Assembly: GCF_965641715.1 (NCBI RefSeq)
Contig: NZ_OZ282453.1
Strand: one strand, 5' to 3'
Origin: Escherichia coli
Lineage (GTDB): Bacteria > Pseudomonadota > Gammaproteobacteria > Enterobacterales > Enterobacteriaceae
DNA length: 64,000 nt
Shown here: positions 4,182-64,000 of the stretch, one piece after another
Layout: every line of letters begins with the position of its first letter
Numbering within the stretch: position 1 is the stretch's first letter
The notes under the pieces: model-generated
What the model was told of the DNA's origin: nothing
The model's database searches: none
Seen by the model: the letters and a program-made list of their open reading frames with translations, nothing else
Made by a program: the position numbers and the translations under genes

Positions 4182-4205
4182 TTCTCCTGATTCTGATTTA
4201 TCGCC

Positions 4206-7267: not shown

Positions 7268-7276
7268 GGAAAATGA

Positions 7277-7879: not shown

Positions 7880-7882
7880 TAA

Positions 7883-9383: not shown

Positions 9384-9484
9384 ATAAAAAAGGCCATCAT
9401 ACGATGGCCAACCATGTCGAAACCGACAGCCCTTCGCCATTCCTGTAGAGGGAAGCGGCGAGGGCTATTTCTTATTACAGATAT
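9384..9484 (-). ncRNA. sdhX: 3'-UTR-derived sRNA SdhX (RybD) with its intrinsic terminator
   Basis: Lies immediately 3' of the sucD stop on the minus strand; terminator hairpin ggccatcgtatgatggcc followed by a U-run, as at the K-12 sucD 3' end. Confidence 0.6.
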
Positions 9485-10354
9485 TTATTTCAGAACAGTT
9501 TTCAGTGCTTCACCGATATCCGCCAGGCTGCGAACGGTTTTCACGCCTGCGGCTTCCAGAGCAGCGAATTTCTCATCCGCAGTCCCTTTCCCACCGGCAA
9601 TGATGGCACCCGCGTGGCCCATACGTTTGCCTTTCGGCGCAGTCACACCAGCGATGTAACCCACAACTGGCTTGGTAACGTGCTCTTTGATGTACGCAGC
9701 TGCTTCTTCTTCAGCGCTACCGCCGATCTCACCGATCATCACGATCGCTTCGGTCTGCGGATCTTTTTCGAACATTTCAAGAATGTCGATAAAGTTAGAG
9801 CCAGGGATCGGGTCACCGCCGATACCGACACAGGTCGACTGACCGAAACCGTAATCCGTGGTCTGTTTAACCGCTTCATAGGTCAGTGTACCGGAACGGG
9901 AAACGATACCCACTTTACCCGGTTTGTGAATGTGACCCGGCTGAATACCGATTTTGCATTCACCCGGAGTGATAACGCCTGGGCAGTTCGGGCCGATCAT
10001 ACGAACGCCTGCTTCATCCAGCTTCACTTTCACAGTCAGCATATCCAGCGTCGGGATGCCTTCAGTGATGGTGATAATCAGTTTGATGCCTGCGTCGATG
10101 GCTTCCAGAATGGAGTCTTTGCAGAACGGTGCTGGTACGTAGATAACAGAAGCGGTAGCGCCAGTAGCAGCAACAGCTTCACGCACGGTGTTGAACACCG
10201 GCAGGCCGAGGTGGGTAGTACCGCCTTTACCTGGAGTTACGCCACCAACCATTTTGGTGCCGTATGCAATGGCCTGTTCAGAGTGGAAAGTCCCCTGGCT
10301 ACCGGTAAAGCCCTGGCAGATAACCTTGGTGTTTTTATCAATTAAAATGGACAT
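9485..10354 (-). CDS. sucD: succinyl-CoA synthetase alpha subunit
   Basis: 289 aa, [24 protein letters not shown]…. Confidence 0.97.
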
Positions 10355-11520
10355 TATTTCCCCTCCACTGCGGCAACAACCTGCTGAGCTGCATCCGTCA
10401 GACCTTTTGCTGCAATAATATTCAGGCCGCTGTCAGCCAGTTTCTTCGCGCCGAGTTCGGCGTTGTTACCTTCCAGACGTACCACGACCGGTACGTTAAC
10501 ACCCACTTCCGCTACCGCGCCGATGATACCGTCAGCGATCAGGTCGCAACGAACGATACCGCCGAAGATGTTAACCAGAACGGCTTTCACTTTGTCGTCA
10601 GAGAGAATGATTTTGAACGCTTCGGTTACACGTTCTTTGGTTGCGCCGCCGCCAACGTCAAGGAAGTTAGCTGGTTCGCCGCCGTGCAGTTTAACGATGT
10701 CCATCGTACCCATCGCCAGACCTGCGCCGTTAACCATACAACCGATGTTACCGTCCAGCGCAACGTAGTTCAGTTCCCACTGTGCAGCCTGTGCTTCACG
10801 CGGATCTTCCTGCGACTGGTCACGCATTTCGCGCAGATCAGGCTGGCGGAACAGGGCGTTGCCATCAGCGCCCAGTTTGCCGTCGAGGCAAATCAGATCA
10901 CCCTGTTTGGTGATGACCAGCGGGTTGATTTCGATCAGCGCCAGATCGCGTTCCAGGAAAATGGTCGCCAGGCCCATGAAGATTTTGGTGAACTGCTGAA
11001 CCAGTTTACCTTCCAGACCCAGTTTGAACGCCAGCTCGCGTCCCTGATACGGCATCGGGCCAGTCAGTGGATCAAGCGCAACTTTGTGGATCAGATGCGG
11101 AGTTTCTTCCGCCACTTTTTCGATTTCCACGCCGCCTTCGGTGGAGGCCATAAAGACCACGCGACGGGAACTACGGTCTACAACGGCACCGAGGTACAGC
11201 TCTTTAGCGATATCGGTCGCTGCTTCAACCAGAATCTGGTTAACCGGTTGGCCATTAGCATCTGTTTGATACGTTACCAGACGCTTGCCGAGCCAGTTTT
11301 CTGCAAAAGCACGGATGTCTTCTTTGCTGTTTACAACTTTCACACCGCCCGCTTTACCGCGGCCACCAGCGTGAACCTGACATTTCACTACCCACGGACC
11401 GGCACCGATTTTTGAAGCGGCTTCTTCTGCTTCGCGCGGAGTAGTACAGGCATAACCCACCGGTGCTGGTAAGCCATAGCGGGCAAACAGTTGTTTTGCC
11501 TGATATTCATGTAAGTTCAT
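10354..11520 (-). CDS. sucC: succinyl-CoA synthetase beta subunit
   Basis: 388 aa, [18 protein letters not shown]…; overlaps the sucD start by 1 nt. Confidence 0.97.
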
Positions 11521-11559
11521 GTGTTCTGTCCATCCTTCAGTAATCGTTATCTTTTAAAC

Positions 11560-11860
11560 CGTAGACCGAATATTTCGTATCGCTCCCGGGTATTGTCGGT
11601 CACCCGTAGGCCTGATAAGACGTGTAAGCGTCGCATCTGGCATCGCTTGTCGGATGCGGCGCGAGCGCCTTATCCGACCTACATCGGTGCTTCCCGTAGG
11701 CCTGATAAGACGTGTAAGCGTCGCATCAGACATCGCTTGTCGGATGCGGCGCGAGCGCCTTATCCGACCTACATTGGTGGTCCCGTAGGCCTGATAAGAC
11801 GCGTCAGCGTCGCATCAGGCTTCAATTGCCGGAGAAGGCGATAATGCCTTATCCGGTCTA
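11560..11860. repeat. BIME/REP array, three ~95-bp units
   Basis: Three near-identical units containing gcctgataagacg…gcgtcgcatc…cggatgcggcg…ccttatccgacctac palindromes in the sucB-sucC intergenic region. Confidence 0.85.
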
Positions 11861-11883
11861 CAGTGCAGGTGAAACTTAAACTA

Positions 11884-13101
11884 CTACACGTCCAGCAGCA
11901 GACGCGTCGGATCTTCCAGCAACTCTTTGATCGTTACCAGGAAGCCCACGGATTCGCGACCATCGATCAGACGGTGATCGTAGGACAGCGCCAGGTACAT
12001 CATCGGCAGGATCTCAACCTGACCATTCACAGCCATCGGACGATCTTTGATAGCGTGCATACCCAGAATTGCGCTCTGCGGCGGGTTGATGATCGGCGTA
12101 GACATCAGGGAACCGAACACACCACCGTTGGTGATGGTGAAGTTACCACCGGTCAGATCTTCAACCGTCAGCTTGCCGTCACGGCCTTTAACTGCCAGCT
12201 CTTTGATTTTCTTCTCGATGTCTGCCATGCCGAGGGTATCGACATCACGCAGTACCGGCGTCACCAGGCCGCGCGGCGTAGAAACCGCCATGCTGACGTC
12301 GAAATAGTTGTGGTAAACCACGTCATCGCCGTCGATAGAAGCATTCACTTCCGGGTAACGTTTCAGGGCTTCAACCACCGCTTTCACGTAGAAGGACATA
12401 AAGCCCAGACGGATGCCGTGGCGTTTTTCAAACGCTTCACCGTACTGCTTACGCAGATCCATAATCGGCTTCATGTTGACTTCGTTGAACGTGGTCAGCA
12501 TGGCGGTGGAGTTTTTCGCTTCCAGCAGACGCTCTGCCACACGCTTACGCAGGCGAGTCATCGGGACACGTTTTTCACTACGTGCAGCCAGAGCCGGTTG
12601 CGCCGCCGGAGCAGCCGCTGCCGGTGCAGACTCTTTCGCCGGGGATTTCGCCAGATGTTTTTCCACATCTTCACGGGTCAGACGACCACCCACACCGGTG
12701 CCTTTAATGGCGCTGGCGTCGAGGTTATGTTCAGCCAGCAAGCGACGGATCGCCGGGCTTAACGCATCGTTGTTTTGCTCTTCCAGAGACGCCTGCTGGC
12801 GTTGCGCCGGAGTGGACGCTTTCTCTTCAGATTTGGCGCTGGTTTCTTTACCGGCGCTGTTGCCTTCACGCAGGCGACCAAGGATCTGACGAGACGTTAC
12901 CGTTGTACCTTCATCTTTCAGAACCGCATCCAGAATGCCGTCTGCTGATGCCGGTACTTCCAGTACCACTTTGTCAGTTTCGATTTCTACCAGCACTTCA
13001 TCACGTACGACTGCGTCGCCGGGTTTTTTATGCCAGGTTGCGACGGTGGCATCGGCTACGGATTCAGGCAGGTCAGGGACCAGAATATCTACGCTACTCA
13101 T
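11884..13101 (-). CDS. sucB: 2-oxoglutarate dehydrogenase E2 (dihydrolipoyl succinyltransferase)
   Basis: 405 aa, [26 protein letters not shown]…. Confidence 0.97.
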
Positions 13102-16094: not shown

Positions 16095-16217
16095 ACGCCT
16101 GATGCGCTGCGCTTATCAGGCCTACGGGTAATGACTTGTAGGCCGGATAAGGCGTTCACGCCGCATCCGGCACTGGTTGCCTGATGCGACGCTTGCGCGT
16201 CTTATCAGGCCTACGGT
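16095..16217. repeat. REP elements in the sdhB-sucA intergenic region
   Basis: gcctgatgcg…cttatcaggcctac and gccggataaggcg…gcatccggc palindromes. Confidence 0.8.
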
Positions 16218-33559: not shown

Positions 33560-33675
33560 GATGCCTGATGCGACGCTTGACGCGTCTTATCAGGCCTACG
33601 TATTTCCTGCAATTTATTGAATTTGCACAAATTTGTAGGCTGGATAAGGCGTTCACGCCGCATCCGGCATCTGGG
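33560..33675. repeat. REP elements between dtpD and phr
   Basis: gcctgatgcgacgcttgacgcgtcttatcaggcctac and ggctggataaggcgttcacgccgcatccggc. Confidence 0.8.
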
Positions 33676-52417: not shown

Positions 52418-54082
52418 TTACTCGCCAACTTTCGCCCAGGTATCACGCAGCCCAACGGTGCGGTTAAATACCGGTTTTTCGGCAGTGGAATGGCGGCTAT
52501 CGAGGCAGAAGTAACCTTCACGCTCAAACTGGAATGCTTTACCCGCAACCGCATCTTTCAGCGACGGTTCAGCAAAGCCCTGTTTGATCACCAGCGATTC
52601 CGGGTTAATCACCGACAGGAAATCATCCGCAGCACCAGGGTTCGGCACACTGAACAGACGGTCATACAAACGGATTTCAACCGGCAGCGCATGTGCCGCG
52701 CTCACCCAGTGAATAACACCTTTGACTTTACGACCATCTGCCGGATCTTTACTTAAGGTATCGGCGTCATAAGTACAGAAGATGGTGGTGATATTACCTT
52801 CGGCATCTTTCTCGACGCGTTCTGCCTTAATCACATAAGCATTACGCAGACGCACTTCTTTACCGAGCACCAGACGTTTGTACTGCTTGTTAGCTTCTTC
52901 GCGGAAATCGGCGCGATCGATCCAAATCTCACCGCTAAACGGCACCTGACGGCTCCCCATTTCCGGTTTGTTCGGATGGTTCGGCATGGTGACCATTTCG
53001 CCTTCGCCCTGATAGTTTTCGATAACCAGTTTCACCGGATCGATAACCGCCATTGCGCGCGGCGCATTTTCGTTGAGATCTTCACGGATGCAGGATTCCA
53101 GCGACGCCATCTCAATGGTGTTGTCCTGCTTGGTCACGCCGATGCGTTTGCAGAACTCACGAATAGAAGCCGCAGTGTAACCACGACGACGCAGACCGGA
53201 AATGGTCGGCATTCGCGGGTCATCCCAGCCTTCAACGTGCTTGTCGGTCACCAGCAGGTTCAGCTTACGCTTGGACATCACAGTGTATTCCAGATTCAGG
53301 CGCGAGAATTCGTACTGGCGCGGGTGAACAGGAATGGTGATGTTGTCCAGCACCCAGTCGTACAGGCGACGGTTGTCCTGGAACTCAAGCGTACACAGAG
53401 AGTGCGTAATACCTTCCAGCGCATCGCTGATGCAATGGGTGAAGTCGTACATCGGGTAGATGCACCACTTGTTGCCAGTCTGGTGGTGTTCAGCAAATTT
53501 AATGCGGTACAGCACCGGATCGCGCATTACGATAAATGGCGACGCCATGTCGATTTTCGCACGCAGGCAGGCTTTACCTTCTTCAAAACCGCCGGTACGC
53601 ATTTTCTCGAACAGCGCCAGGTTCTCTTCAACGCTACGGTCGCGGTACGGGCTGTTTTTACCAGGCTGCGTCAGGGTGCCGCGGTATTCGCGGATCTGTT
53701 CCGGCGTCAGTTCATCAACGTACGCCAGGCCTTTATTGATCAGTTCGATCGCATAGGCGTGGAGCTGATCAAAATAATCGGAGGAGTAACGGACGTTACC
53801 AGACCAGTGAAAACCTAACCACTCAACGTCGTTTTTGATCGAATCGACATACTCGATATCTTCTTTTACCGGGTTAGTGTCGTCGAAACGCAGGTTGCAC
53901 TGGCCTTTATAGTCCTGGGCGATCCCGAAGTTCAGGCAGATAGATTTCGCATGGCCAATATGCAGATAGCCATTCGGCTCCGGCGGGAAACGGGTGTGTA
54001 CTGTGGTGTGCTTACCACTGGCCAGATCTTCATCGATGATCTGACGAATAAAGTTAGTCGGGCGGGCTTCTGCCTCACTCAT
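52418..54082 (-). CDS. glnS: glutaminyl-tRNA synthetase
   Basis: 554 aa, [24 protein letters not shown]…; class I HIGH motif (HIGH). Confidence 0.97.
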
Positions 54083-54301
54083 CGTGGATTCCTCAAAGCG
54101 TAAACAACGTATAACGGCGTATGATCTTATAAGCGGGACAGGCTGACAACTGTTAGTTAGCGAAAAAGTGGTTTTGCGTAAGATATTGGGGCGTTTTCTG
54201 CGCTACAGCCAGCAGATCCTCGCGCTGGAGACGTAAGGCCAAACGTCGCCAGCCTGACGCGTTTATTAAATTTCCGGATGAGCTGGCCGCAGAGTCGTAG
54301 A

Positions 54302-55063
54302 TTAATCCGCTATGATTAAACGCGTCGACAAGGACGCCAGCGTTTTGCGCGTCTGCCCATCAAGCTGATTATCCGTAATAATCTCTGTCAGTTCATTAAG
54401 ATGCGCGATATTAAACAGCGACCATGAACCGTATTTTGAGCTGTCAGCCAGGAGAATTTTGCGCGAAGCATGCGCGATAAGATCGCGTTTTAGTGCGGCT
54501 TTCTCTTCCGTGGGTGCTGTAATACCCTTTTCAAGATCCCAGCTGTTACAGCTTAAAAATGCCACGTCCGGCCAGGTATTTTGCAGCATTTTACGACCAT
54601 GTTCGCCAATGCAGGACTGGCTGGAGTCGTCGATACGTCCGCCGATAATCGTCACTTCAATCTGCTTGAATTCAGCCAAAAAAAGCGCGATATGCAGGTC
54701 GCTGGTGATCACGCGAAGCGGTAAATGGGTAATCTGCCGCGCAAGTTCAATCATTGTCGTACCGGCATCAAGGACGACGGAATCCCCCGCTTTGACCATT
54801 GACGCCGCTGCGCTGGCGATGGCATGTTTTTCCGCCAGGCTGCGCTGCATTTTCTCATGGGTAGTCGGTTGGGTAGGAATAAACCGGTTGAGGGTCACAC
54901 CGCCGTGTGTACGGCTGATAACACCCTGCTCATCGAGTTTTATCAGGTCTCGACGAATCGTGGCCGGCGACGCATTGGTTACCGCCACCAGCTCATCAAC
55001 GGTGACCAGATTATGGCTTTTCAGGTAATCCATGATCTGCTCTAACCGGTTATATCCCTTCAT
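54302..55063 (-). CDS. DeoR/GlpR-family transcriptional regulator
   Basis: 253 aa; N-terminal HTH …[21 protein letters not shown]… typical of DeoR; last gene of the minus-strand kinase-dehydrogenase-regulator operon. Confidence 0.85.
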
Positions 55064-55064
55064 T

Positions 55065-56051
55065 TTATTCTCGCGAAATCTGCATTGCTAACTGGATGGA
55101 AACTGCCATGCTCTCAGACTTGGCTTTTCCTGTCCAGGCAATATCAAATGCGGTGCCGTGGTCGGCAGAAGTACGAATAAATGGCAACCCGGCGGTGATA
55201 TTCACCCCATCATAAAATCCAAGCAGTTTTAAAGGGATATGCCCCTGATCGTGGTACATAGCCACCACCATATCGAATAGCCCTTCATGGCACTGCATGA
55301 ACACGGTATCTGGCGGGCACGGGCCAGTAACATCAATATCTTCGGCCTGCATTGCTTCAATCGCAGGTGCGATAATCTCGATTTCCTCAGTGCCGAATAA
55401 ACCGTGTTCCCCTGCATGTGGATTTACACCCGCCACGGCAATACGCGGACGCTCAATACCGACACGTTTCAGGAAGTGGTTCGCAACTCGAATAACCGTT
55501 TTGACCCTTTCACCGTTCAATGTATCCAGGAATTTACGCAGTGAGATGTGAGTCGAAATATGGATAACCTTGAGCTTATCGGTATAGAGCACCATCGCGT
55601 ACTCTTTGCTGCCGGTAAGATGGGCCAGCAATTCCGTATGGCCAGGATAGTTATGCCCGCCAAGATGCAGCGCTTCTTTATTCAACGGCGCAGTGGCTAT
55701 GGCTTTCACCTCGCCTGATAAGGCCAGGGCCGTTGCACGTTTGATACAGCGATACGCTAAATCGCCTGCCGCAGCCTGTACCACTCCGGGTGTCAGCGCA
55801 TCGGGGTTAGCCAGCGGCTCATCCATCACGTTAATCACGCCGGGAGCAAAGTGGGCGTCGCACACCTTTTGAATGACGCGTAACTCTGTCTGCGGCGTGA
55901 TATTCATCGCCATAATACGTCGTAACGTGCGCACACAGCCCACCACCACCACCGGGGCACCAGCAAGCCCGGCTTCGCTCAGGGATTTAATAATGATCTC
56001 CGGGCCAATACCCGCCGGATCGCCCATCGTTACCGCAATAATATTATTCAC
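55065..56051 (-). CDS. PdxA-family NAD-dependent dehydrogenase (PdxA2-like)
   Basis: 328 aa with a PdxA-type N-terminus (…[14 protein letters not shown]…); adjacent to a DUF1537 kinase. Confidence 0.8.
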
Positions 56052-57282
56052 TACGCTTCTCCTCGATAAAATTCAGAACCTGATGCAACGTGGTCTCATC
56101 GCCAAACCCACCGGCTTTCGTCATCACCGAACGGGACCAGACGCCGCCCAGAAAGTGACCGTATGGAACGCACTGCGCCACCTTCCCCGTAATACGAAAC
56201 CCGGTCGCACCTAACGCACTGGCTGTTGCCATTGCGACATCGCCACCAGAGAGATAAAGGGCATCAGGGGTGACACGAAGCAGAACTTGCCGGGTAAGTT
56301 CGCCAAGAAACCGGCAAATTTTTTCCCCAAGCGCAGCGCGACTCATCTGCCAACGCTGGCAAAGGGTGTCGATATGGTGCCTTGCTTCAGAATCGGTACA
56401 GGTGTGGACAATGCAGTGGTCCCCTTTCTGTAAGGCCTGCACAATACGCGCGTCATAGCCCCTGGCGTTGCCTGCCAGAATGTGTTCAACATCGACGTAT
56501 ATCTGTGTGATACGTGAGTGTGAATGCAGTGTGGCGATCTGCCGTTGAGCGATTTCGCTCATTGAACCAATAATGGCCAGCACGGTGGGTGGCGGCATAA
56601 TCGCCGAGCGCCGGGCAACGGCATCACAAATACCAGCGGAGCCGACCAGCAGCAGCGGTTGTTTAGCCTGCATCACAGCGGCAGCGATGCAATCCAGGTC
56701 GCTGTCCGTCTGCGCATCCATCACCCCAATCCACGGTTGCTCACGAGACAAATGGCTGAGCTCAGAAACTGTAACGGGCTGGCATGGAATGGCCGTCTGC
56801 AACCGAATGATGTCCGCAATTCGTGCGCTCATTACCGGGGTTTTTGGATCGCTGGCAAACTCGGTTTCCGTTAGCCGCACGCCGTTTACCCGACACTCAC
56901 CGTCCACCGTGGTCCTTCCCACCTGGGGAAATGCGGGGGCAACCACTGCGCCCGTTATGCCGCATGCCTGCATCAGGGCTTCAATTTCTGCGCCGATATT
57001 CCCTCGCAGCGTGGAATCTATCTTTTTAATCATGAGCGGCGGGTTATTCGCCAGAGGGAGATGACTCATCAGCGAGGTCATTTTCATCGCGGCCTGCTTA
57101 GGATCCATCGCCCGACTGTCGCTATTAATCACCCATACGCTTGCATCACCGTGATAAGGCGTTGCAAAGGCCACATCAACCGTATGTCCCACCTGCGCCA
57201 GGCTTACTCCTGCGTCGTTGGCCCCTGTGAAATCATCGGCAACGACGAGAATGCTCGGCTTAGTGATTCCCTTTTCCATCAT
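56044..57282 (-). CDS. four-carbon acid-sugar kinase family protein (DUF1537; DtnK/OtnK/DenK-like)
   Basis: N-terminal …ILVVADDFTGANDAG… motif; start ambiguous (57282, 57279 or 57321); overlaps the PdxA-family gene by 8 nt. Confidence 0.75.
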   Translation of the reverse strand: MMEKGITKPSILVVADDFTGANDAGVSLAQVGHTVDVAFATPYHGDASVWVINSDSRAMDPKQAAMKMTSLMSHLPLANNPPLMIKKIDSTLRGNIGAEIEALMQACGITGAVVAPAFPQVGRTTVDGECRVNGVRLTETEFASDPKTPVMSARIADIIRLQTAIPCQPVTVSELSHLSREQPWIGVMDAQTDSDLDCIAAAVMQAKQPLLLVGSAGICDAVARRSAIMPPPTVLAIIGSMSEIAQRQIATLHSHSRITQIYVDVEHILAGNARGYDARIVQALQKGDHCIVHTCTDSEARHHIDTLCQRWQMSRAALGEKICRFLGELTRQVLLRVTPDALYLSGGDVAMATASALGATGFRITGKVAQCVPYGHFLGGVWSRSVMTKAGGFGDETTLHQVLNFIEEKRSE

Positions 57283-57299
57283 CACTCCAGGTTGTTTTA

Positions 57300-57448
57300 T
57301 GATGACAATGATTATATTCAATCACGATTGATTAAATGTGAGCAAGTTCAAGTTATTAATCACTCGAATAAATTATAAAATTAGGCCATGTTACGTAGAC
57401 AACGGTATTTTGAATGATTGATTTCAATCACGAGAAGAGAGGTTATTT
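57300..57448. promoter_or_regulatory. divergent promoter/operator region with repeated TTCAATCACGA motifs
   Basis: Motif at 57318-57328 and 57423-57433, each next to a gattgatt half-site; lies between the divergent kinase and alcohol-dehydrogenase operons. Confidence 0.45.
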
Positions 57449-58606
57449 GTGGTAATTATCAATAGCACGATACTGAGCGGCGCAGGCGCTATCCCTTCCC
57501 TGACGTCGCTCTTACCCGGCGTCAGAAAATTGCTGCTGGTCACAGACAGCAATATTGCGCAGCTTAACGGAGTGCAGCAGATTCGCGCCTTACTGGAAAA
57601 GCACTGCCCGCAGGTGAGCGTTATCGATAATGTGCCTGCAGAGCCTACGCATCATGATGTGCGCCAGCAAATGGCGACCCTCGGCAACGCGTCGTTTGAT
57701 GTAGTAGTGGGCGTCGGCGGCGGCAGCGTGCTGGATGTCGCAAAACTGTTGTCGGTGCTTTGTCACCCCGATTCACCGGGGCTGGATGCGCTGCTTGCCG
57801 GTGAAAAACCGACGCAGCGGGTGCAATCATGGTTGATTCCTACAACCGCCGGTACCGGCTCAGAAGCCACGCCAAATGCGATTCTGGCGATCCCTGAACA
57901 AAGCACGAAGGTGGGTATTATTTCTCCGGTGCTGCTACCGGATTATGTGGCACTTTTCCCCGAGCTGACCACCAGCATGCCCGCACATATTGCAGCGTCT
58001 ACGGGCATTGATGCGCTTTGTCACTTACTGGAGTGTTTTACCGCGACCGTGGCAAATCCGGTCAGCGATAACGCGGCGCTAACCGGGTTAAGTAAGCTTT
58101 TCCGGCATATTCAACCCGCCGTGAACGATCCTCAGGATCTGCGCGCAAAACTGGAAATGCTGTGGGCGTCTTACTATGGCGGCGTAGCGATAACCCATGC
58201 GGGCACGCACCTGGTCCATGCGCTCTCCTACCCGTTAGGCGGCAAATATCACCTGCCGCACGGTGTGGCGAATGCCATCTTGCTGGCACCGTGCATGGCG
58301 GTTGTTCGCCCCTGGGCGGTCGAGAAATTTGCCCAGGTCTGGGATTGCATTCCCGATGCGGATACATCCTTGAGCGCGGAAGAGAAATCTCACGCTCTGG
58401 TGGCCTGGCTACAGGCATTAGTCAATCAACTCAAGCTGCCCAACAATCTCGCGGATCTTGGCGTACCGCCAGATGATATTACGTCTCTTAGCGCGGCGGC
58501 ACTGAACGTGAAGCGCCTGATGAACAATTCCCCCTGCCAACTGAATCAGCGGGACGTGCAGGCCATTTACCAAACGCTGTTTCCGCAACATCAATTTAAG
58601 GAGTAA
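57449..58606 (+). CDS. iron-containing (group III) alcohol dehydrogenase family oxidoreductase
   Basis: 385 aa with GTG start and upstream RBS gagaagagagg; GGGSVLD nucleotide-binding motif. Confidence 0.8.
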   Translation: MVIINSTILSGAGAIPSLTSLLPGVRKLLLVTDSNIAQLNGVQQIRALLEKHCPQVSVIDNVPAEPTHHDVRQQMATLGNASFDVVVGVGGGSVLDVAKLLSVLCHPDSPGLDALLAGEKPTQRVQSWLIPTTAGTGSEATPNAILAIPEQSTKVGIISPVLLPDYVALFPELTTSMPAHIAASTGIDALCHLLECFTATVANPVSDNAALTGLSKLFRHIQPAVNDPQDLRAKLEMLWASYYGGVAITHAGTHLVHALSYPLGGKYHLPHGVANAILLAPCMAVVRPWAVEKFAQVWDCIPDADTSLSAEEKSHALVAWLQALVNQLKLPNNLADLGVPPDDITSLSAAALNVKRLMNNSPCQLNQRDVQAIYQTLFPQHQFKE

Positions 58607-58609
58607 ATC

Positions 58610-59497
58610 ATGCCAAAAACCATTGAAGGTGTATTAACCGCCATCGTCACCCCGTTTACCGCGACCGGCGTCCTGAATCTCCCGGCGTTAAAAGTGCAGG
58701 TTAATCGCCAACTGGAAGCCGGTAACGCGATTTTTTGCGGCGGCACCAACGGCGAGTTTTTTGTGTTGAACGAACAGGAGAAGCTCAGCGTTACGCAAAC
58801 CTGCGTGGATGAAGTGGCTGGCCGCGCACCGGTCGTGGCGCACATTGGTGAGATCTCGACGCGCGAAACCATTCGTCTGGGTCAGCAGATTGAAAAACTG
58901 GGCGTTGATGCGGTATCGGTCATTACCCCGTACTTTGTACCGCTAAAACAGGAAGAGCTGATTGCCCATTACACCGCAATTGCCGACGCACTAAGCATTC
59001 CCATGTTTCTCTATAACATCCCGGCCCGCACCGGCAATACGATTCAGCCGGAAACCGCGCGCGCTCTGGCGTCGCATCCCAATATCATTGGGATTAAAGA
59101 CAGCGCCGGAAGCTACGAAAGCCTGAAGGGTTTTCTCGATGCTGTGCGCAACATTGACGGCTTTAATGTGCTCAACGGCCCGGATTCGCTGATCCATAAA
59201 GGGTTTGTCGAGGGGTGTTCAGCCTGTATTTCCGGGCTCGCCAACGTCGCGCCGCGAGAAATCAATGCCATCTGGTCTCGCTTCCATGCCGGTGATATTG
59301 AAGGATCGTATCAGGCACAGGAGAGTGTGACTGGCCTGCGTACCGATCTTTATAAAGTAGCATTCTCCCCAGCTGCGGTGAAAAAAGCGTTGCAGCTTAT
59401 GGGGCATGATGTTGGTGATAGCCGCTACGCGGTTAATTTCACGCCTGAACAGATCAGCGAGATTCAACAAATTATTCGTCATTATCACATTAATTAA
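58610..59497 (+). CDS. DapA/NanA-family class I aldolase (dihydrodipicolinate synthase-like lyase)
   Basis: 295 aa with GTNGE motif, a Tyr in ITPYF and a Schiff-base Lys candidate in IIGIKDS (Lys163); 3 nt after the dehydrogenase gene. Confidence 0.8.
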   Translation: MPKTIEGVLTAIVTPFTATGVLNLPALKVQVNRQLEAGNAIFCGGTNGEFFVLNEQEKLSVTQTCVDEVAGRAPVVAHIGEISTRETIRLGQQIEKLGVDAVSVITPYFVPLKQEELIAHYTAIADALSIPMFLYNIPARTGNTIQPETARALASHPNIIGIKDSAGSYESLKGFLDAVRNIDGFNVLNGPDSLIHKGFVEGCSACISGLANVAPREINAIWSRFHAGDIEGSYQAQESVTGLRTDLYKVAFSPAAVKKALQLMGHDVGDSRYAVNFTPEQISEIQQIIRHYHIN

Positions 59498-59556
59498 ATT
59501 AACTCTATTATCCAGCCCGCTATAACGTATAGATAAAGAGAATAAAGGATTACCCC

Positions 59557-60315
59557 ATGTTTTTGTGGTTTATGCAGCCAGATATCTGGCTCACTTTAAT
59601 TACCCTCACCTTTCTGGAAATTATTCTCGGGGTGGATAATATTATTTTTCTTTCACTGGTGGTGGCAAAACTTCCGTTATCACAACAAAATATGGCGCGT
59701 AAACTGGGTTTAAGCTGCGCGATGATTATGCGGATATTATTGCTGATATCCATTGCGTGGCTTTCACATATTACCCAGCCGCTTTTTACCGTGCTGGCGC
59801 TGGAGATTTCGTTCCGCACGTTGATTCTACTCGGGGGCGGGCTGTTCCTGATTTATAAAGCGATACAGGAGATACGCGAAGAGTTGTCGCCCGCGCAGGA
59901 AGACGCGCATGGCAGCGGGTCGCGGCAGCTGTCGCTGTGCGGTGCTATCGTACAGATAATGCTGCTGGATATTGTGTTCAGCCTGGACTCGGTGATCACC
60001 GCCGTCGGCCTTTCTCAGCATATATTTATTATGATTGCTGCCGTCATGATTGCCGTTGGCATCATGATGTTTGCGGCGAAAACCATTGGTGACTTCGTGA
60101 ACGCGACGCCATCGATAAAAATACTGGCGTTAACCTTTTTATTATTTGTCGGCGTATTGTTGGTTGCCGATAGCCTCAATATTCATATTGCCAAAGAGTA
60201 TCTCTACTTCGCGATATTTTTCTCATTAAGCGTGGAGACACTCAATATTTTCCGTGAAAGAAGACATAAAAAAGTTTCGACATCGATCGAAACGCATGAA
60301 TCGAACTCGCATTAA
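59557..60315 (+). CDS. TerC-family integral membrane protein
   Basis: 252 aa polytopic protein with a TerC-like …LEIILGVDNIIFLSLV… motif. Confidence 0.7.
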   Translation: MFLWFMQPDIWLTLITLTFLEIILGVDNIIFLSLVVAKLPLSQQNMARKLGLSCAMIMRILLLISIAWLSHITQPLFTVLALEISFRTLILLGGGLFLIYKAIQEIREELSPAQEDAHGSGSRQLSLCGAIVQIMLLDIVFSLDSVITAVGLSQHIFIMIAAVMIAVGIMMFAAKTIGDFVNATPSIKILALTFLLFVGVLLVADSLNIHIAKEYLYFAIFFSLSVETLNIFRERRHKKVSTSIETHESNSH

Positions 60316-60350
60316 TAAATCTATTACCGACTTTAAGATGGAGTCTAACT

Positions 60351-61520
60351 ATGTCTGTAGCTCTTATTCGTGACGGCGTCATCCGTCCGTCCGAAAATGA
60401 TTCGCATGTGCTTACCGCCATGCTGCCCTCGTCCTGCCCGCAAAACCACGCGGCGAATATTCTGCCTTTGCCGGATGGCGCGTTAATGTGCGTCTGGTTT
60501 GCGGGAACGCAGGAAGGTATTGCCGATATTTCCGTCTGGGGATCGCGGCTGCCCGCTGGCGGAACGCAGTGGAGCGATGCGGTCAAACTGTCCCACGATG
60601 ACACGCGTTCAGAGCAGAACCCGGTACTGTTTCTCGCACCGGATAACGTGCTGTGGCTGCTATGGACCGCACAAATATCCGGTAATCAGGACACCGCCAT
60701 CGTCCGCTACCGTAAGTCAGACGACCTCGGACAAACCTGGGGCGAGATTGCCACGCTGCTCGATAAACCCGGCACGTTCATTCGCCAGCCGATCACGGTG
60801 CTTGATAACGGCAACTGGCTGCTGCCCGTCTTTTATTGCCGTACCCAACCCGGTGAAAAATGGGTCGGCAATGATGATATCAGCGCAGTGAAAATTTCCG
60901 CTGACGGTGGTCACTCATGGCGCGATGTCGAGGTGCCGCAAAGTCTCGGCTGCGTTCATATGAATATCACAATGCTGCACGACGGTACGTTGGCTGCTCT
61001 CTTTCGCAGCCGTTGGGCAGACAACATCTATATCAGCCATTCTGCGGACCACGGCGAGAGCTGGTCGGTGCCGCAAGCAACCGAACTGCCCAACAACAAT
61101 TCGTCTATTCAGGTGACGACGCTTGCCAGCGGTGAGCTGGCGCTGGTGTACAACGCAATGAGTGCGGCAGGCGCAGTAGAACGTCGCGCGTCGCTGTATG
61201 ACGAAATCGACGATGGCGACGACAGTCGCAAAGAACCCACAGCCGTTGGACGCTCCGCTTTCTGGGGTGCCCCGCGCGCGCCGATGACGGTAGCGATTTC
61301 TGCCGATGGCGGGAAAAGCTGGCCGTGGCGGCGCAATCTCGATGAAGGCGATGGCTACTGCATGACCAACAATTCGCTGGAAAAGCTAAATCGCGAGTTC
61401 TCCTACCTCAGTATCAAACAAAGCCCGGACGGTACGCTGCATATCGCTTACACCTGGTGGCGTCAGGCCATCAAGTACGTGCGCATCTCCCCCGAGTGGG
61501 TTAAGGGGCAGGCATTATGA
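60351..61520 (+). CDS. BNR/Asp-box repeat protein, sialidase-superfamily beta-propeller, predicted cytoplasmic
   Basis: Four Asp-boxes: SDDLGQTW (60717-60740), SADGGHSW (60897-60920), SADHGESW (61041-61064), SADGGKSW (61299-61322); N-terminal IRP resembles the sialidase RIP motif; no signal peptide apparent. Confidence 0.75.
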   Translation: MSVALIRDGVIRPSENDSHVLTAMLPSSCPQNHAANILPLPDGALMCVWFAGTQEGIADISVWGSRLPAGGTQWSDAVKLSHDDTRSEQNPVLFLAPDNVLWLLWTAQISGNQDTAIVRYRKSDDLGQTWGEIATLLDKPGTFIRQPITVLDNGNWLLPVFYCRTQPGEKWVGNDDISAVKISADGGHSWRDVEVPQSLGCVHMNITMLHDGTLAALFRSRWADNIYISHSADHGESWSVPQATELPNNNSSIQVTTLASGELALVYNAMSAAGAVERRASLYDEIDDGDDSRKEPTAVGRSAFWGAPRAPMTVAISADGGKSWPWRRNLDEGDGYCMTNNSLEKLNREFSYLSIKQSPDGTLHIAYTWWRQAIKYVRISPEWVKGQAL

Positions 61521-61987
61521 TTATCGGGAATCTCAACCATTTGTCACAGGCGGGGCTTCCCGCTGGCGTGAAAAATATTCTGCTGCGCCCGGAATGTTCG
61601 TTACGGGCGTTATCCGCCAGAGAGGACGGTCGCTGGCAACTGGAAGGATGCCGGTGGTTCTGCACGCTGGGCCTTTCAGACACGCAGCCCGCCGATCTCC
61701 GGCATACGGAGTATCACCATCTGTGGGCCGATATTCAGGTGGTGATTGCCGGTTGTGAGGGCATTAATGCGGGGACGCGGCCCGTAGCGCAGGAAAGCGA
61801 TGAAGAACGTAAGCCCGATCTGTTTATCGCCCCATCCCCTGAAAACAGTGTCGCAATCACCTTACACCCCGGTGATTTCGCCGTCTTTATGCCAGAAGAA
61901 CCCCATCAGGCGCTGTGCGCGGTTGGCGCGGCCACGTCAGTACGTAAAGCGGTCTTTAAGGTACCGCGCGACATGCTGGAAGCCTAA
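61517..61987 (+). CDS. YhcH/YjgK/YiaL-family (DUF386) protein, putative ulosonic-acid anomerase
   Basis: 156 aa resembling E. coli YhcH (…GDFAVFMPEEPH… versus YhcH …GMFAVFMPGEPH…); overlaps the upstream gene by 4 nt. Confidence 0.75.
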   Translation: MIIGNLNHLSQAGLPAGVKNILLRPECSLRALSAREDGRWQLEGCRWFCTLGLSDTQPADLRHTEYHHLWADIQVVIAGCEGINAGTRPVAQESDEERKPDLFIAPSPENSVAITLHPGDFAVFMPEEPHQALCAVGAATSVRKAVFKVPRDMLEA

Positions 61988-62000
61988 AAGGAGAGAAAAA

Positions 62001-63281
62001 ATGACAATGGAAATGATCCTGGCATTAGGAATACTGGTCCTGATGATCGTGCTGATCATGTCGGACAAAATGCCCTTTGGCGCACCGCCACTGCTTGCGT
62101 GTTTATTGCTGGTTGTCTCGGGGCTGTCGACGGTTCAACAGGCTTTTGCCGGATTCGTCAATCCAAGCGTGGTGATGATTGCAGGGTTTATGGTGGTGAT
62201 GGCTGCGCTACAAAAAACCCGGCTTATCAGCAACGTTAAATCTGCGATGATAAGCCTGGTCAATAAAGGCAGTTACCGCAGTTATGGGCTGTTGTTAGTC
62301 ATCGTTATGCTGGGCGCCAGTCTTGCCGGCACCGGCGCGACGGGTTATTACGTGCTGATTCTGTCTCTGGTATCCACCATTCCGTACAGTAAAAAGCTAC
62401 CAACATCGAAATTGATGATGCCACTGGGATTTGCCACCAACCATCCGCTTCTTCCTATCAATCTCGCGCTTCTCTTTGGCGTCACGGCGACCGTACTCGA
62501 AACAGCCGGTTTTCATCAGGAGATTTCGATGGGGCGCTTTGCGCTGGTGAATCTCGTCATGTCAGCGGCTTTTCTGGCGTGGAGTCTGATTGCCTACCGT
62601 TTTCTTCCGGATCATCCCATTGCGGATGCTTCCGAGGATGCGCTGGCCGCACGCGAAGAAACGTTTAACGCCCTTCCTGCCTGGAAAGAGTATTGCACCA
62701 TCGCCGCATTCGCCGTCAGCGTTATCGGCATGATGCTGATGAATATGCTGGGTAATATCGCCTTCGTTATTCCAGGCCTTGCGGGTGCGTTTGTTCTGAT
62801 GATCGATGTACTGGACTTTAAAGAAGTTCGCGATCATATGGGGGCACCGGTCATTTTAATGATGGCGGGGGTGATCGGTGTGGCTGATGCGCTGGCTGGC
62901 ACCGGCTTTACGGCAATGGTAGGCGATGCCGTTGCAGGTGTGCTCGGGTCTGGCGTCTCACCGTTTGTATTTATTGTCGCCTTTGCTTTACTTACCAGTA
63001 CCTGCGCCACCTTCACGGGTTCGAATATGGGGTCAGTCTATATTTTTGCCCCCATCGCCATTGCCGCCTGTACTAGCCTTGGGCTTAACCCGACCGCTGC
63101 CGCGATTGCGGTGGTGATTTCTGGCTGGAATGGCGGCTATATGCCTATTGACGGAATGCCAGCCATGATCCTCGGAATGGGGAAATACAAACTTCCCGAA
63201 TTCTGGGTGTTCTCTGTACCAATGTATCTCATCCGCATTCTGGCGCTTTGTGCAGGCGCTGTTTTTATCTTCCCAATGTAA
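62001..63281 (+). CDS. ion-transporter superfamily permease (DASS/CitMHS/ArsB-like), putative organic anion transporter
   Basis: 426 aa polytopic membrane protein; start taken at the ATG 7 nt after the aaggaga RBS (MTMEMILALGIL…), not the ORF-track start at 61800 which overlaps the upstream gene. Confidence 0.7.
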   Translation: MTMEMILALGILVLMIVLIMSDKMPFGAPPLLACLLLVVSGLSTVQQAFAGFVNPSVVMIAGFMVVMAALQKTRLISNVKSAMISLVNKGSYRSYGLLLVIVMLGASLAGTGATGYYVLILSLVSTIPYSKKLPTSKLMMPLGFATNHPLLPINLALLFGVTATVLETAGFHQEISMGRFALVNLVMSAAFLAWSLIAYRFLPDHPIADASEDALAAREETFNALPAWKEYCTIAAFAVSVIGMMLMNMLGNIAFVIPGLAGAFVLMIDVLDFKEVRDHMGAPVILMMAGVIGVADALAGTGFTAMVGDAVAGVLGSGVSPFVFIVAFALLTSTCATFTGSNMGSVYIFAPIAIAACTSLGLNPTAAAIAVVISGWNGGYMPIDGMPAMILGMGKYKLPEFWVFSVPMYLIRILALCAGAVFIFPM

Positions 63282-63290
63282 TCTCAGACA

Positions 63291-63327
63291 AAAAAAGCGG
63301 CAGAGAAGATCCCTGCCGCTTTTTATT
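63291..63327. terminator. bidirectional intrinsic terminator between the convergent permease gene and nagE
   Basis: aaaaaaa-gcggcag-agaagatcc-ctgccgc-ttttt. Confidence 0.75.
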
Positions 63328-63366
63328 GTTGAATGCGACGCTGCCGTGTCGCATCAGGCATGAAGC
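63328..63366. repeat. REP-like palindrome at the nagE 3' flank
   Basis: gaatgcgacgctgccgtgtcgcatcaggc resembles a REP core. Confidence 0.5.
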
Positions 63367-63369
63367 AGA

Positions 63370-64000
63370 TTACTTTTTGATTTCATACAGCGGTGTTTGA
63401 CCCGCCACAACATGGCCCTGAGCTTTAATGATCAAGCCACTGAAATCGTCGATATTACTGCAAACCACTGGGCTAATCATCGAGCGGGCGTTAGCGTTCA
63501 GGTAATCCAGATCCATTTCCAGAATCGGTTGTCCTGCGCTTACCTGCGCGCCCTCTTCCACCAGACGTTTAAAGCCTTTACCTTCCAGCGCTACGGTATC
63601 GATACCCATATGGACGACGATCTCCGCGCCTTTTTCGGTTTCCAGGCAGAACGCGTGGTTGGTGTTGAAGATTTTCACGATTGTCCCTGCGGCTGGTGAT
63701 ACGACGATTTTATCTGTCGGTTTCACCGCCACACCGTCACCCACTGCTTTGCTGGCGAATGCTTCGTCAGGAACCTGATCCAGTGCCACGACATCACCGG
63801 TAATCGGCGATACCAGCTCCGCGATAGATACCGCGTTTGGTACAGCCTGCGGTTTTGCTACAGGAGCGGCAGTTGCCGGAGTTGCTTCAGCAGAGGCAGC
63901 TGCTACCGGGCCACGGGCAACGACTTTCTTCATCGCATCGCCGATGGATTCTGCTTTCGCGCCAACAATCACCTGAATAGTCTGTTTGTTCAGTTTTACT
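63370..64000 (-). CDS. nagE: PTS N-acetylglucosamine-specific EIICBA component, C-terminal part (5' end lies beyond the window)
   Basis: Translation ends …GQTPLYEIKK; EIIA-Glc-type domain with the GIDTVALEGKGF region; the frame stays open towards the window edge. Confidence 0.85.
   Translation of the reverse strand, partial: VKLNKQTIQVIVGAKAESIGDAMKKVVARGPVAAASAEATPATAAPVAKPQAVPNAVSIAELVSPITGDVVALDQVPDEAFASKAVGDGVAVKPTDKIVVSPAAGTIVKIFNTNHAFCLETEKGAEIVVHMGIDTVALEGKGFKRLVEEGAQVSAGQPILEMDLDYLNANARSMISPVVCSNIDDFSGLIIKAQGHVVAGQTPLYEIKK

Follow-up and report, generated by a model that had tools for sequence, protein, structure and literature searches.

The window analyzed here is a 64-kb stretch of Escherichia coli DNA. 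Between glnS (52418-54082, minus strand) and nagE (63370 onward, minus strand), it carries nine intact open reading frames in two divergent operons (54302-63281). In K-12, nagE and glnS are neighbors separated by a 202-bp spacer, and the junction alignment with K-12 showed that 43 bp of this spacer were replaced by an accessory block of 9128 bp (54159..63286). An earlier sequence-only reading had claimed both the nine genes in two divergent operons and the adjacency of the flanking genes in K-12, and each claim was borne out. No tRNA gene was present in the 64-kb window, no integrase-like product was detected among the nine block genes with NCBIfam, and inspection of the block junctions revealed no direct repeats. 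A mechanical list of open reading frames placed the starts of DtnK and the permease at 57321 and 61800, whereas the RefSeq annotation of E2348/69 supports 57279 and 62001. Since dN/dS against the E2348/69 alleles was 0.01-0.22 across all nine genes and their orthologues are present in many genera, these are real genes and not chance reading frames.

Among 5426 complete E. coli genomes, 1047 (about one in five) carry the block, at approximately 95% identity. Its genes are already annotated by PGAP, and it appears as the uncharacterized region 'GR 6' of ExPEC strains (PMC12928451). According to that paper, Thiaville et al. 2016 had noted a comparable sialidase-like/dapA/adh cluster in S. meliloti. 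The previous statement that the two catabolic modules had not been described together thus needs to be narrowed: their co-location had already been noticed, but no paper assigning a substrate to the block was found in our literature search. The block sequence is not new; its pathway and substrate are the uncharacterized part.

All family assignments of the sequence-only reading agreed with the NCBIfam and Pfam profile matches. The minus-strand operon ends with the gene for a DeoR/GlpR-family repressor (54302..55063), the NCBIfam matches of which (AgaR-, YgbI-, and GlpR-like) were all below the equivalog cut-offs. PdxA2, the D-threonate 4-phosphate dehydrogenase (55065..56051, minus strand; dN/dS 0.04 against the E2348/69 allele), scored 681 bits (NF002891; cut-off 583), and DtnK, the DUF1537 D-threonate kinase (56044..57279, minus strand), scored 532 bits (NF047819; cut-off 450). 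PdxA2 catalyzes an oxidative decarboxylation that yields DHAP and CO2. Since both proteins exceeded curated D-threonate equivalog cut-offs, we place the end of the pathway at D-threonate. The E. coli PdxA2 orthologue is 75% identical to Salmonella PdxA2 P58718 (PMC12928451, Table 5), whereas DtnK is only approximately 40% identical to the characterized Salmonella kinase (PMC12928451).

The divergent promoter region contains an inverted repeat, TCAATC-AC-GATTGA (57318..57331), which is a candidate DeoR operator, and a putative CRP-like site, TGTGA-N6-TCAA(G) (57337..57351). Each occurs once in the window, and they are kept in 26 and 27, respectively, of the 28 related loci that share this divergent arrangement. 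A second inverted repeat, TGATTGA-TT-TCAATCA (57415..57430), lies directly upstream of the Fe-ADH start and may be a second operator; half-sites resembling it were found in several relatives. The DeoR repressor, together with CRP, probably governs both divergent operons, and the conservation of the operator-like repeat and the CRP-like site would favor catabolic regulation. A different role for the PdxA2/DUF1537 pair is proposed in PMC12928451, citing Thiaville et al. 2016: 4-hydroxy-L-threonine would be recycled or detoxified into the PLP pathway of vitamin B6. On such a reading, the neighboring genes would supply or remove related toxic intermediates. PdxA2 is able to catalyze the PdxA reaction (PMC9997740); however, the same source regards PdxA2 as a catabolic paralogue and not as a PLP synthesis gene. 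The D-threonate equivalog scores of PdxA2 and DtnK and the carbon-source operon setting, with a transporter, an aldolase, a DeoR repressor, and a CRP-like site, also argue against a vitamin B6 function, which we consider to be highly improbable.

The plus-strand operon begins with an iron-containing alcohol dehydrogenase of the Fe-ADH family (57449..58606, plus strand). Its top NCBIfam matches, namely, ErcA, lactaldehyde reductase, and 4-hydroxybutyrate dehydrogenase, were all below cut-off, and its relatives in the PDB are FucO and 1,3-propanediol oxidoreductase. We propose that it functions as a D-threuronate (2,3-dihydroxy-4-oxobutanoate) reductase yielding D-threonate. The next gene (58610..59497, plus strand) encodes a class I aldolase that family profiles place in the DapA/NanA superfamily. 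It scored below the dapA cut-off (190 vs 206), both NanA cut-offs (148 vs 281; 114 vs 382), and that of TIGR02313 (145 vs 397). The Schiff-base residue Lys163, Tyr135, and Arg140 were conserved among 52 orthologues. Arg140 corresponds to R138 of DapA, which is Leu in NanA, and this position was basic throughout (Arg in 46 and Lys in 6). T45 and Y107 of DapA were replaced by Asn and Phe, respectively, in all orthologues; these replacements led us to reject a true DapA, and the superfamily assignment stands. Judged by its profile scores, the aldolase is nearer DapA than NanA. In DapA, R138 contacts the carboxylate of aspartate semialdehyde, a four-carbon aldehyde-acid. The conserved Arg140 therefore points to a distal carboxylate on the aldolase substrate. 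We propose that this enzyme is an aldolase of 3-deoxy-D-lyxo-hept-2-ulosaric acid (Dha; name confirmed in PMC3355719) that produces pyruvate and D-threuronate.

The following gene encodes a TerC-family membrane protein (59557..60315, plus strand; TIGR03716/03717, below cut-off) and sits where most relatives have an SSS symporter. Apart from the E. coli alleles, only 3 of the 80 loci scanned, one from K. spallanzanii and two from Kluyvera, have TerC at this position. Its dN/dS against the E2348/69 allele was 0.06, and no riboswitch was found upstream of the gene. The sialidase-fold protein ('SiaL'; 60351..61520, plus strand) is a six-bladed BNR propeller, and the predicted Asp-box sialidase fold was upheld by Pfam BNR_2 (E = 1.4e-62). 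It has no obvious N-terminal signal sequence on inspection, and His apparently occupies the position of the RIP arginine. Structurally, it is nearer GH33 sialidases than GH143, and it is the most conserved member of the cluster, with 60-65% identity across phyla. We tentatively propose that it is a ketosidase-type enzyme freeing or converting an ulosaric acid, the least certain of our functional proposals.

The YhcH/NanQ-family protein (61517..61987, plus strand) scored 97 bits with TIGR00022 (cut-off 45.5), but missed the NanQ equivalog (94 bits vs 160). Based on the function of the YhcH family (PMC8141875), we propose that it is an anomerase ('openase') that provides the aldolase with its keto acid substrate in open-chain form. 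A NanA-like aldolase with YhcH had been viewed as the hallmark of sialic acid catabolism; the families hold, but the hallmark is weak given the affinity of the aldolase to DapA. The operon is completed by a DASS/SLC13 anion permease (62001..63281, plus strand; TIGR00785, 57 bits, below cut-off; 'SLC13 family permease' in PGAP) with a dN/dS of 0.01 against the E2348/69 allele. It is 76% identical to the DASS gene within the equivalent Paenibacillus ginsengihumi cluster, and we propose that it imports the dicarboxylate substrate.

With the sialidase-fold protein as the query, 80 related loci were retrieved, and neighbors within 10 kb of its gene were counted. The aldolase was present in 62 loci, PdxA2 and Fe-ADH in 58 each, DtnK in 57, and a DeoR orthologue in 41. 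These loci span Enterobacterales, Vibrio, Pasteurellaceae, Beta- and Alphaproteobacteria, Bacillus, Paenibacillus, and Negativicutes, and gene order varies among the taxonomic groups. In Bacillus, genes for the aldolase, Fe-ADH, SSS, sialidase-fold protein, regulator, DtnK, and PdxA2 follow one another on the same strand. The combination of TerC and the DASS permease is seen only in the variant of E. coli, Klebsiella spallanzanii, and Kluyvera; most relatives instead have an SSS symporter and an SDR oxidoreductase at these positions. The cluster transporters are all carboxylate carriers (DASS, TAXI-TRAP, SSS, and galactonate-type MFS). The hosts are mostly plant-associated and include pectin degraders (Dickeya, Pectobacterium, Erwinia, Pantoea, Kosakonia, Bradyrhizobium, Azospirillum, and Paenibacillus), and six loci have GH28 pectinase-like genes no more than 10 kb away.

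Since the sialidase-fold protein, aldolase, Fe-ADH, DtnK, and PdxA2 cluster in 57-62 of the 80 loci in varied orders, the conserved neighborhood supports the view that the block is a single functional unit. It also supports the earlier suggestion of one catabolic system proceeding from uptake through ring opening, cleavage, and the redox, kinase, and PdxA2 reactions to DHAP. Two independent modules lying side by side, a D-threonate operon (deoR-pdxA2-dtnK) and an operon scavenging a sialic acid-like sugar, KDN, or Kdo (aldolase, YhcH, sialidase-fold protein, and transporter), would be compatible with the location of the gene sets on opposite strands. DtnK and PdxA2 by themselves reportedly suffice for D-threonate catabolism in Salmonella (Zhang et al. 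2016, PNAS), and in Pantoea and Bradyrhizobium, the SSS/sialidase-fold/SDR trio also occurs with none of the other cluster genes within 10 kb. However, the two sets occur together across phyla, in some cases on the same strand, as in Bacillus. Moreover, the block has neither NanK nor NanE, its aldolase scores below the cut-offs of both NanA models, and it contains no downstream enzymes for the C5 or C6 sugars expected from Kdo, Neu5Ac, and KDN. We consider two separate modules to be improbable.

We propose that the block encodes one inducible pathway for a C7 2-keto-3-deoxy aldaric acid, most likely Dha, with a probability of approximately 0.45. Dha is a side-chain D sugar of rhamnogalacturonan-II (RG-II) pectin. 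The substrate had been regarded as impossible to name from the sequence; however, stereochemistry allows Dha to be proposed. In the Fischer projection of the D-lyxo configuration, the hydroxyl groups of C4 and C5 are on the left and that of C6 is on the right. Once C3-C4 is cut, C5 and C6 of Dha are threo and of the D series; therefore, by this nomenclature-based derivation, the product would be D-threuronate, and its reduction would give D-threonate. The Dha route fits because this reduced cleavage product is exactly the substrate of DtnK/PdxA2. The same stereochemical logic applied to Kdo correctly yields D-arabinose.

The analysis established the gene content, the family membership, and the conservation of synteny and of residues, whereas the substrate, the order of steps, and the regulation are inferred. 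The proposed steps are as follows. The DASS permease would bring in the dicarboxylate; most relatives have an SSS symporter and a few a TAXI-TRAP transporter at the corresponding position. The cytoplasmic sialidase-fold protein may release Dha from a small conjugate or convert a derivative, which is the least certain step. YhcH would open the pyranose ring, and the DapA-like aldolase would cut C3-C4 to yield pyruvate and the four-carbon aldehyde-acid D-threuronate. The aldehyde would be reduced by Fe-ADH to D-threonate, O4 would be phosphorylated by DtnK, and oxidative decarboxylation by PdxA2 would deliver DHAP, which enters glycolysis, and CO2.

The carboxylate-carrier transporters, aldolase Arg, plant-associated hosts, and nearby GH28 genes in some loci support Dha as the substrate. 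However, several points count against it. Dha is a minor sugar, with approximately one residue per RG-II chain, which is odd for so widespread a cluster. SSS symporters, which most relatives use, typically carry monocarboxylates, and the SDR of these relatives is superfluous in the scheme and missing from E. coli. A free monosaccharide would not require the sialidase-fold protein, the most conserved member, which is nearer GH33 than GH143 and is also found in the trio alone. DtnK shares only approximately 40% identity with the Salmonella kinase, and the TerC gene has no place in the scheme.

The same logic, from a keto-deoxy acid sugar to pyruvate and a C4 compound, D-threonate, and DHAP, may also apply to a substrate other than Dha, such as a different C7 acid of the ulosonic or ulosaric type, or a small derivative (glycoside, lactone, or anhydro form). 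This compound would first be converted by the sialidase-fold protein and, in most species, by the SDR as well. Synteny and the D-threonate end fit such a substrate equally, the conserved trio suggests the pre-processing of an imported conjugate, and monocarboxylate sugars, for example, sialic acid, are typical cargo of SSS carriers. However, we know of no other natural C7 2-keto-3-deoxy acid of the threo configuration. A monoacid would yield D-threose, which requires oxidation and not a reduction of the Fe-ADH type, and the SDR is missing from E. coli; a distal carboxylate is also indicated by Arg140, which is conserved in the aldolase. A substrate other than Dha is somewhat less likely.

The block, with Dha as the favored candidate substrate, resembles several known systems. 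It shares with the nan cluster (NanA, NanQ/YhcH, NanT/SiaT, and sialidase) a class I pyruvate aldolase superfamily, a YhcH anomerase, a sialidase fold, and, in most relatives, SSS. However, its aldolase stays below the NanA cut-offs, with Arg in place of Leu142 of NanA, NanK and NanE are missing, and its downstream enzymes would act on a C4 acid instead of ManNAc; in contrast to the nan sialidase, its sialidase-fold protein lacks an obvious signal sequence and apparently has His at the RIP arginine. Another related system is BT_1020 (PDB 5mqs), the GH143 Dha hydrolase of the RG-II locus of Bacteroides thetaiotaomicron reported by Ndeh et al. 2017. DapA (4-hydroxy-tetrahydrodipicolinate synthase) and the DapA-like 2,4-dihydroxyhept-2-ene-1,7-dioate aldolases (TIGR02313) similarly interconvert pyruvate plus a C4 aldehyde-acid and a C7 2-oxo-4-hydroxy diacid. 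The equivalents of the Lys, Tyr133, and Arg138 of DapA are kept in the block aldolase, although it is below the cut-offs of both DapA and TIGR02313 and has Asn for T45 and Phe for Y107 in all orthologues.

In the glucarate/galactarate route, an aldolase (GarL) is followed by a semialdehyde reductase (GarR, tartronate semialdehyde reductase) and a kinase (GarK, glycerate kinase). There, as in the proposed pathway, a 2-keto-3-deoxy aldaric acid is converted to pyruvate and an aldehyde-acid that is reduced, phosphorylated, and passed into glycolysis. The block differs in that its substrate would be C7 and not C6, its aldolase is of the class I DapA type and not the class II HpcH type, its reductase is an Fe-ADH and not a beta-hydroxyacid dehydrogenase, and PdxA2 adds a decarboxylation; no protein is homologous to its counterpart, and the likeness is one of analogy, not family membership. 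A further known system is the DtnK and PdxA2 pair of Salmonella: equivalog cut-offs are passed, PdxA2 is 75% identical, and a DeoR regulator adjoins the pair. In contrast to the Salmonella pair, the block adds an aldolase, Fe-ADH, an anomerase, a sialidase-fold protein, and other transporters, and its kinase is approximately 40% identical. Since the pair is embedded among upstream enzymes, D-threonate would be an internal intermediate of this pathway and not the imported substrate.

The accessory gene block between glnS and nagE is a probable acid-sugar catabolic cluster for which a specific substrate hypothesis is presented here. The sequence-only reading had placed nine genes in two divergent operons at this site. 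The ORF list confirmed this arrangement, and all nine genes are intact. The minus strand carries, in order of coordinate after glnS (52418-54082), genes for a DeoR regulator (54302-55063), D-threonate 4-phosphate dehydrogenase (PdxA2, 55065-56051), and the DUF1537 D-threonate kinase (DtnK, 56044-57279). The plus strand carries genes for an iron-containing alcohol dehydrogenase (Fe-ADH, 57449-58606), a DapA/NanA-family aldolase (58610-59497), a TerC protein (59557-60315), a BNR/sialidase-fold protein (60351-61520), YhcH (61517-61987), and a DASS/SLC13 permease (62001-63281). The nagE gene lies on the minus strand from 63370 onward. For DtnK and the permease, the RefSeq annotation of E2348/69 was followed, which gives shorter reading frames than the mechanical ORF list does.

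In K-12, nagE and glnS are adjacent, as that reading had also stated. The spacer between them in K-12 measures 202 bp. The junction alignment showed that 43 bp of this spacer are replaced by window 54159-63286. A classical mobile island was rejected because the window contains no tRNA gene, none of the nine block products matched an integrase family in NCBIfam, and the GC content of the block (0.45-0.59) is similar to that of its flanks. No direct repeats were seen when the junction sequences were read by eye. The spacer between the permease gene and nagE (63287-63369) is common to K-12, and the matched stretch, which extends into nagE, is 95% identical. This spacer has a hairpin, then a T run, and also a REP-like palindrome, and is probably the native nagE terminator region left at the insertion edge. 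Elsewhere in the window, three naRNA4 (CssrE, REP-derived) elements and one ES036 (CssrF) sRNA exceeded the Rfam gathering scores (11609-11769, 16141-16211, and 33592-33634); they are unrelated to the block.

The distribution of the block, which had been left to database comparison, was established among complete E. coli genomes. It is present in 1047 of 5426, always as a single chromosomal copy, and its carriers include E2348/69, clone D i14, and BEN2908. All 1047 copies are only ~95% identical to the window copy, and the flanking chiQ-chiP-glnS stretch shows up to 99.1% identity to some strains. Identity to E2348/69 is mosaic (Fe-ADH 90.6%, YhcH 91.5%, DeoR 98.6%, PdxA2 ~98.5%, and glnS 97.5%). 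This pattern suggests an old polymorphism with internal recombination, and that the complete genomes do not include the lineage of the window. The dN/dS values against E2348/69 were 0.01-0.22 for all nine genes; therefore, all nine are under purifying selection. In BEN2908 (NZ_LR740776.1, 702404-705816), an IS1A element splits the TerC gene of the block, and TerC is therefore dispensable, at least in this strain.

Profile searches supported the family assignments that had been made by inspection, with matches for DtnK, PdxA2, YhcH, and BNR_2. DtnK passed the D-threonate kinase equivalog NF047819 (531.7 bits, cut-off 450), and PdxA2 passed the D-threonate 4-phosphate dehydrogenase equivalog NF002891 (680.9 bits, cut-off 583). 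These assignments set the predicted end of the pathway, in which D-threonate would be converted to D-threonate 4-phosphate and then to DHAP and CO2. YhcH scored 97 bits against its family model (cut-off 45.5) and 94.3 bits against the NanQ equivalog (cut-off 160). The sialidase-fold protein had no NCBIfam match and matched Pfam BNR_2 at 1.4e-62. A riboswitch before TerC was rejected, since an Rfam search of 53900-63500 at E <= 1 gave a single, chance-level match.

The aldolase is neither a DapA nor a NanA. It scored below the dapA cut-off (TIGR00674, 189.6 vs 206.15 bits) and below both NanA cut-offs (NF003164, 148 vs 281 bits; TIGR00683, 114 vs 382 bits). The Schiff-base lysine (DapA Lys161) and Tyr135 (DapA Tyr133) are kept in all 52 orthologues, and the position of DapA Arg138 is basic in all of them (Arg in 46, Lys in 6). 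DapA Tyr107 and Thr45 are replaced by Phe109 and Asn47 in 52/52, and Arg140 sits where NanA has Leu142. A true DapA, which would have overturned the original assignment, was ruled out by the equivalog score and by the catalytic-triad residues, as the Thr44/Tyr107/Tyr133 set is not kept whole. A true NanA was ruled out by its scores and by Arg140 in place of Leu142.

The proposal that the aldolase and the kinase/dehydrogenase pair form one pathway was supported. The aldolase, Fe-ADH, DtnK, and PdxA2 share a neighbourhood across varied taxa. One genome per species was scanned with an alignment of 16 sialidase-fold sequences, which yielded 571 confirmed relatives, and the best 80 loci were kept. 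Among these 80, the aldolase was found within 10 kb of the sialidase-fold gene in 62, PdxA2 and Fe-ADH in 58 each, DtnK in 57, DeoR in 41, and YhcH in 37. Represented among the 80 loci are Enterobacterales, Vibrio, Lonepinella, Propionivibrio, Burkholderia, Paraburkholderia, Azospirillum, Bradyrhizobium, Roseomonas, Bacillus, Paenibacillus, Megasphaera, and Lucifera. Their gene orders differ; in Bacillus, the aldolase, Fe-ADH, an SSS transporter, the sialidase-fold protein, a regulator, DtnK, and PdxA2 are encoded on one strand. Co-occurrence across these taxa in varied orders argues strongly that the genes act as one functional unit. We consider it about 75% probable that the block encodes one pathway through D-threonate to DHAP, with 3-deoxy-D-lyxo-hept-2-ulosaric acid (Dha) or another compound of the same kind as its substrate.

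The transport and accessory functions differ among loci. The common enterobacterial order is DeoR, PdxA2, and DtnK on one strand, followed divergently by Fe-ADH, the aldolase, SSS, the sialidase-fold protein, YhcH, and an SDR oxidoreductase. In the variant of E. coli, Klebsiella spallanzanii, and Kluyvera, TerC takes the place of the SSS symporter and the DASS permease that of the SDR. A TAXI-TRAP system is present in the Vibrio, Lonepinella, and Formivibrio loci, and the Erwinia loci have an extra galactonate-type MFS carrier and a 2-hydroxyacid dehydrogenase. The DASS permease of E. coli is 76% identical to one encoded within the Paenibacillus ginsengihumi cluster (L055:11337-12623), and this transporter therefore belongs to the system. 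The neighbouring P. ginsengihumi enzymes are only 31-62% identical to those of E. coli, a difference suggesting that the transporter gene moved between phyla recently and on its own. Annotation of neighbours in the Bacillus and Bradyrhizobium loci revealed nothing but unrelated transporters and regulators.

Four loci from Pantoea and 'Enterobacter cancerogenus' M004 (L021, L023, L024, and L047, about 1500-12000) contain an SSS/sialidase-fold/SDR trio without an aldolase, DtnK, or PdxA2 within 10 kb. Tartrate dehydrogenase (TIGR02089, 575 bits, cut-off 470) is encoded in all four and a TtdR-like LysR regulator in three. In three of these Pantoea-type loci, a sugar ABC transporter adjoins the trio together with tartrate dehydrogenase, and two of the three also have a GH28 pectinase-like gene. 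Trio-only organisms could instead convert the C4 aldehyde-acid to tartrate by oxidation.

Dha occurs in the plant polysaccharide rhamnogalacturonan-II (RG-II) and in some green-algal walls (PMC3355719). In the proposed scheme, a class I pyruvate aldolase would cleave Dha, a seven-carbon 2-keto-3-deoxy diacid, to a four-carbon aldehyde-acid. Fe-ADH would reduce the aldehyde to give D-threonate, which DtnK would phosphorylate to D-threonate 4-phosphate for conversion by PdxA2 to DHAP and CO2. The D-lyxo configuration has the C4 and C5 hydroxyls on the left and the C6 hydroxyl on the right. As derived from nomenclature, this stereochemistry fits exactly: cleavage between C3 and C4 would leave D-threuronate, and reduction of its aldehyde would yield D-threonate because the threo pattern is C2-symmetric. 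The same reasoning applied to Kdo gives D-arabinose, its known aldol cleavage product, and this serves as a check on the derivation. In DapA, Arg138 binds the carboxylate of aspartate semialdehyde, itself a four-carbon aldehyde-acid. The block aldolase keeps a basic residue at this position (Leu in NanA), which independently supports the Dha reading.

Kdo, Neu5Ac, and KDN were rejected as substrates because their cleavage gives C5 or C6 sugars without downstream enzymes in the block. Similarly, 3-deoxy-D-arabino-heptulosonate was rejected because its product, D-erythrose, needs oxidation. Several features do not fit Dha. The SDR of most relatives has no part in the scheme and is missing from E. 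coli, the scheme does not account for TerC, and the trio is able to stand alone. Monocarboxylates are more typical of SSS carriers than a diacid such as Dha, and Dha is scarce in nature. Furthermore, a glycosidase-like enzyme would be superfluous for a free monosaccharide, yet it is strongly constrained in E. coli. Because of these misfits, we place Dha itself as the substrate at a little under even odds.

No other protein of the cluster is as conserved as the sialidase-fold protein (60-65% identity between E. coli and Firmicutes), and its dN/dS of 0.05 in E. coli indicates strong constraint. No N-terminal signal sequence was obvious by inspection. AlphaFold modelling from 46 diverse relatives gave a confident structure (pLDDT 94.7). 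Profile alignments matched Arg219 and Arg309 to the second and third sialidase arginines and Tyr352 to the nucleophilic tyrosine; all three residues are >90% conserved. Judged by motif spacing only, the place of the RIP arginine appears to be taken by His33, which is invariant in two narrower alignments and >90% conserved among all 46 relatives. The sialidase glutamate that partners the nucleophile aligns with Val202/His203. Near the acid/base position, Glu55 is invariant and Asp59 is invariant among closer relatives. Assembly GCA_001247695.2 encodes two BNR_2 proteins (L086 and L087) with 38-40% identity to the query; it looks eukaryotic from its gene ranges of 9-11 kb. Look-ups of longer, possibly secreted relatives in polysaccharide loci led to such an assembly, whose gene surroundings were uninformative, and otherwise to no recorded entry.

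The divergent promoter region contains an inverted repeat, TCAATC-AC-GATTGA (57318-57331), as a candidate operator kept in 26 of 28 related loci, and a CRP-like site, TGTGA-N6-TCAA(G) (57337-57351), kept in 27 of 28. A plus-strand search found each once in the window. A second inverted repeat (57415-57430) is another candidate control site. The conserved repeat and CRP-like site together are what is usually seen at carbon-source operons under repressor control and catabolite sensitivity, which these would be. Scans for consensus promoters and terminators gave counts at the shuffled-sequence level and were set aside. The hosts of the best 80 loci of the 571 relatives are mostly plant-associated and include pectin-degrading soft-rot genera. 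Six loci, from Pantoea, Erwinia mallotivora, and Bacillus, have GH28 genes (polygalacturonase or rhamnogalacturonidase type) no more than 10 kb away.

The block, common to ExPEC strains and AIEC LF82, is listed as 'GR 6, nagE..glnS' in a table of uncharacterised features (PMC12928451). That article, citing Thiaville et al. (2016), describes a similar arrangement of sialidase-like, dapA-like, and adh genes in S. meliloti. Full-text searches found no paper that gives this cluster a substrate or describes Dha catabolism; an already characterised operon with a defined substrate, which would have contradicted the original reading, was likewise not found. Mentions of PdxA2 or four-carbon kinases in work on Klebsiella and Sinorhizobium were uninformative. 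According to a 2026 RG-II preprint, B. thetaiotaomicron secretes several sugars, D-Kdo among them, for which pathways in other gut microbes are unconfirmed. As a sequence the block is widespread, carries annotation, and has been published as uncharacterised; what is new is the pathway assignment. That the block represents jointly the first Dha catabolic pathway, a natural D-threonate source, a new sialidase-fold activity, and an RG-II cross-feeding link is a tentative proposition, slightly less probable than Dha by itself. If true, it would fill in the fate of one 'orphan' sugar of the most complex plant polysaccharide and supply a natural origin of D-threonate for DtnK and PdxA2. It would also reveal a new activity, towards a seven-carbon ulosaric acid, of a sialidase-fold enzyme in the cytoplasm, and a role for the COG4692 'predicted neuraminidase' proteins that are widespread and lack an obvious signal sequence. 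Gut Bacteroides or soil flavobacteria that degrade pectin would cross-feed B2/ExPEC E. coli, Klebsiella, soft-rot pathogens, and rhizobacteria. This would be a concrete nutrient niche for 19% of complete E. coli genomes, ExPEC/B2 model strains among them, and equally for Dickeya, Pectobacterium, and similar plant pathogens. Should Dha prove to be the wrong substrate, a well-defined and conserved orphan pathway would still be left.

The block was compared with known systems. The sialidase-fold protein has the six-bladed beta-propeller with Asp-box repeats of GH33 exo-alpha-sialidases. Two arginines of their triad are matched by alignment, and His33 appears, by motif spacing, at the position of the RIP arginine. 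In structure the protein is nearer to GH33 sialidases than to GH143, the family of the Dha hydrolase BT_1020. In the comparison with the sialic acid (nan) cluster, YhcH passed its family model and scored below the NanQ cut-off, the aldolase is outside the NanA equivalogs, and none of the nine products matched NanK (ManNAc kinase) or NanE (ManNAc-6-P epimerase). Dha is the hydroxy analogue of the open-chain DapA intermediate. In NCBIfam, DapA-like 2,4-dihydroxyhept-2-ene-1,7-dioate aldolases split a C7 diacid with the release of succinate semialdehyde, which 4-hydroxybutyrate dehydrogenases of the Fe-ADH type reduce. These families, which count among the weaker hits of the block aldolase and Fe-ADH, serve as supporting precedents for the two corresponding steps of the scheme. 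The Dha scheme would be a one-carbon-longer analogue of the glucarate/galactarate pathway.
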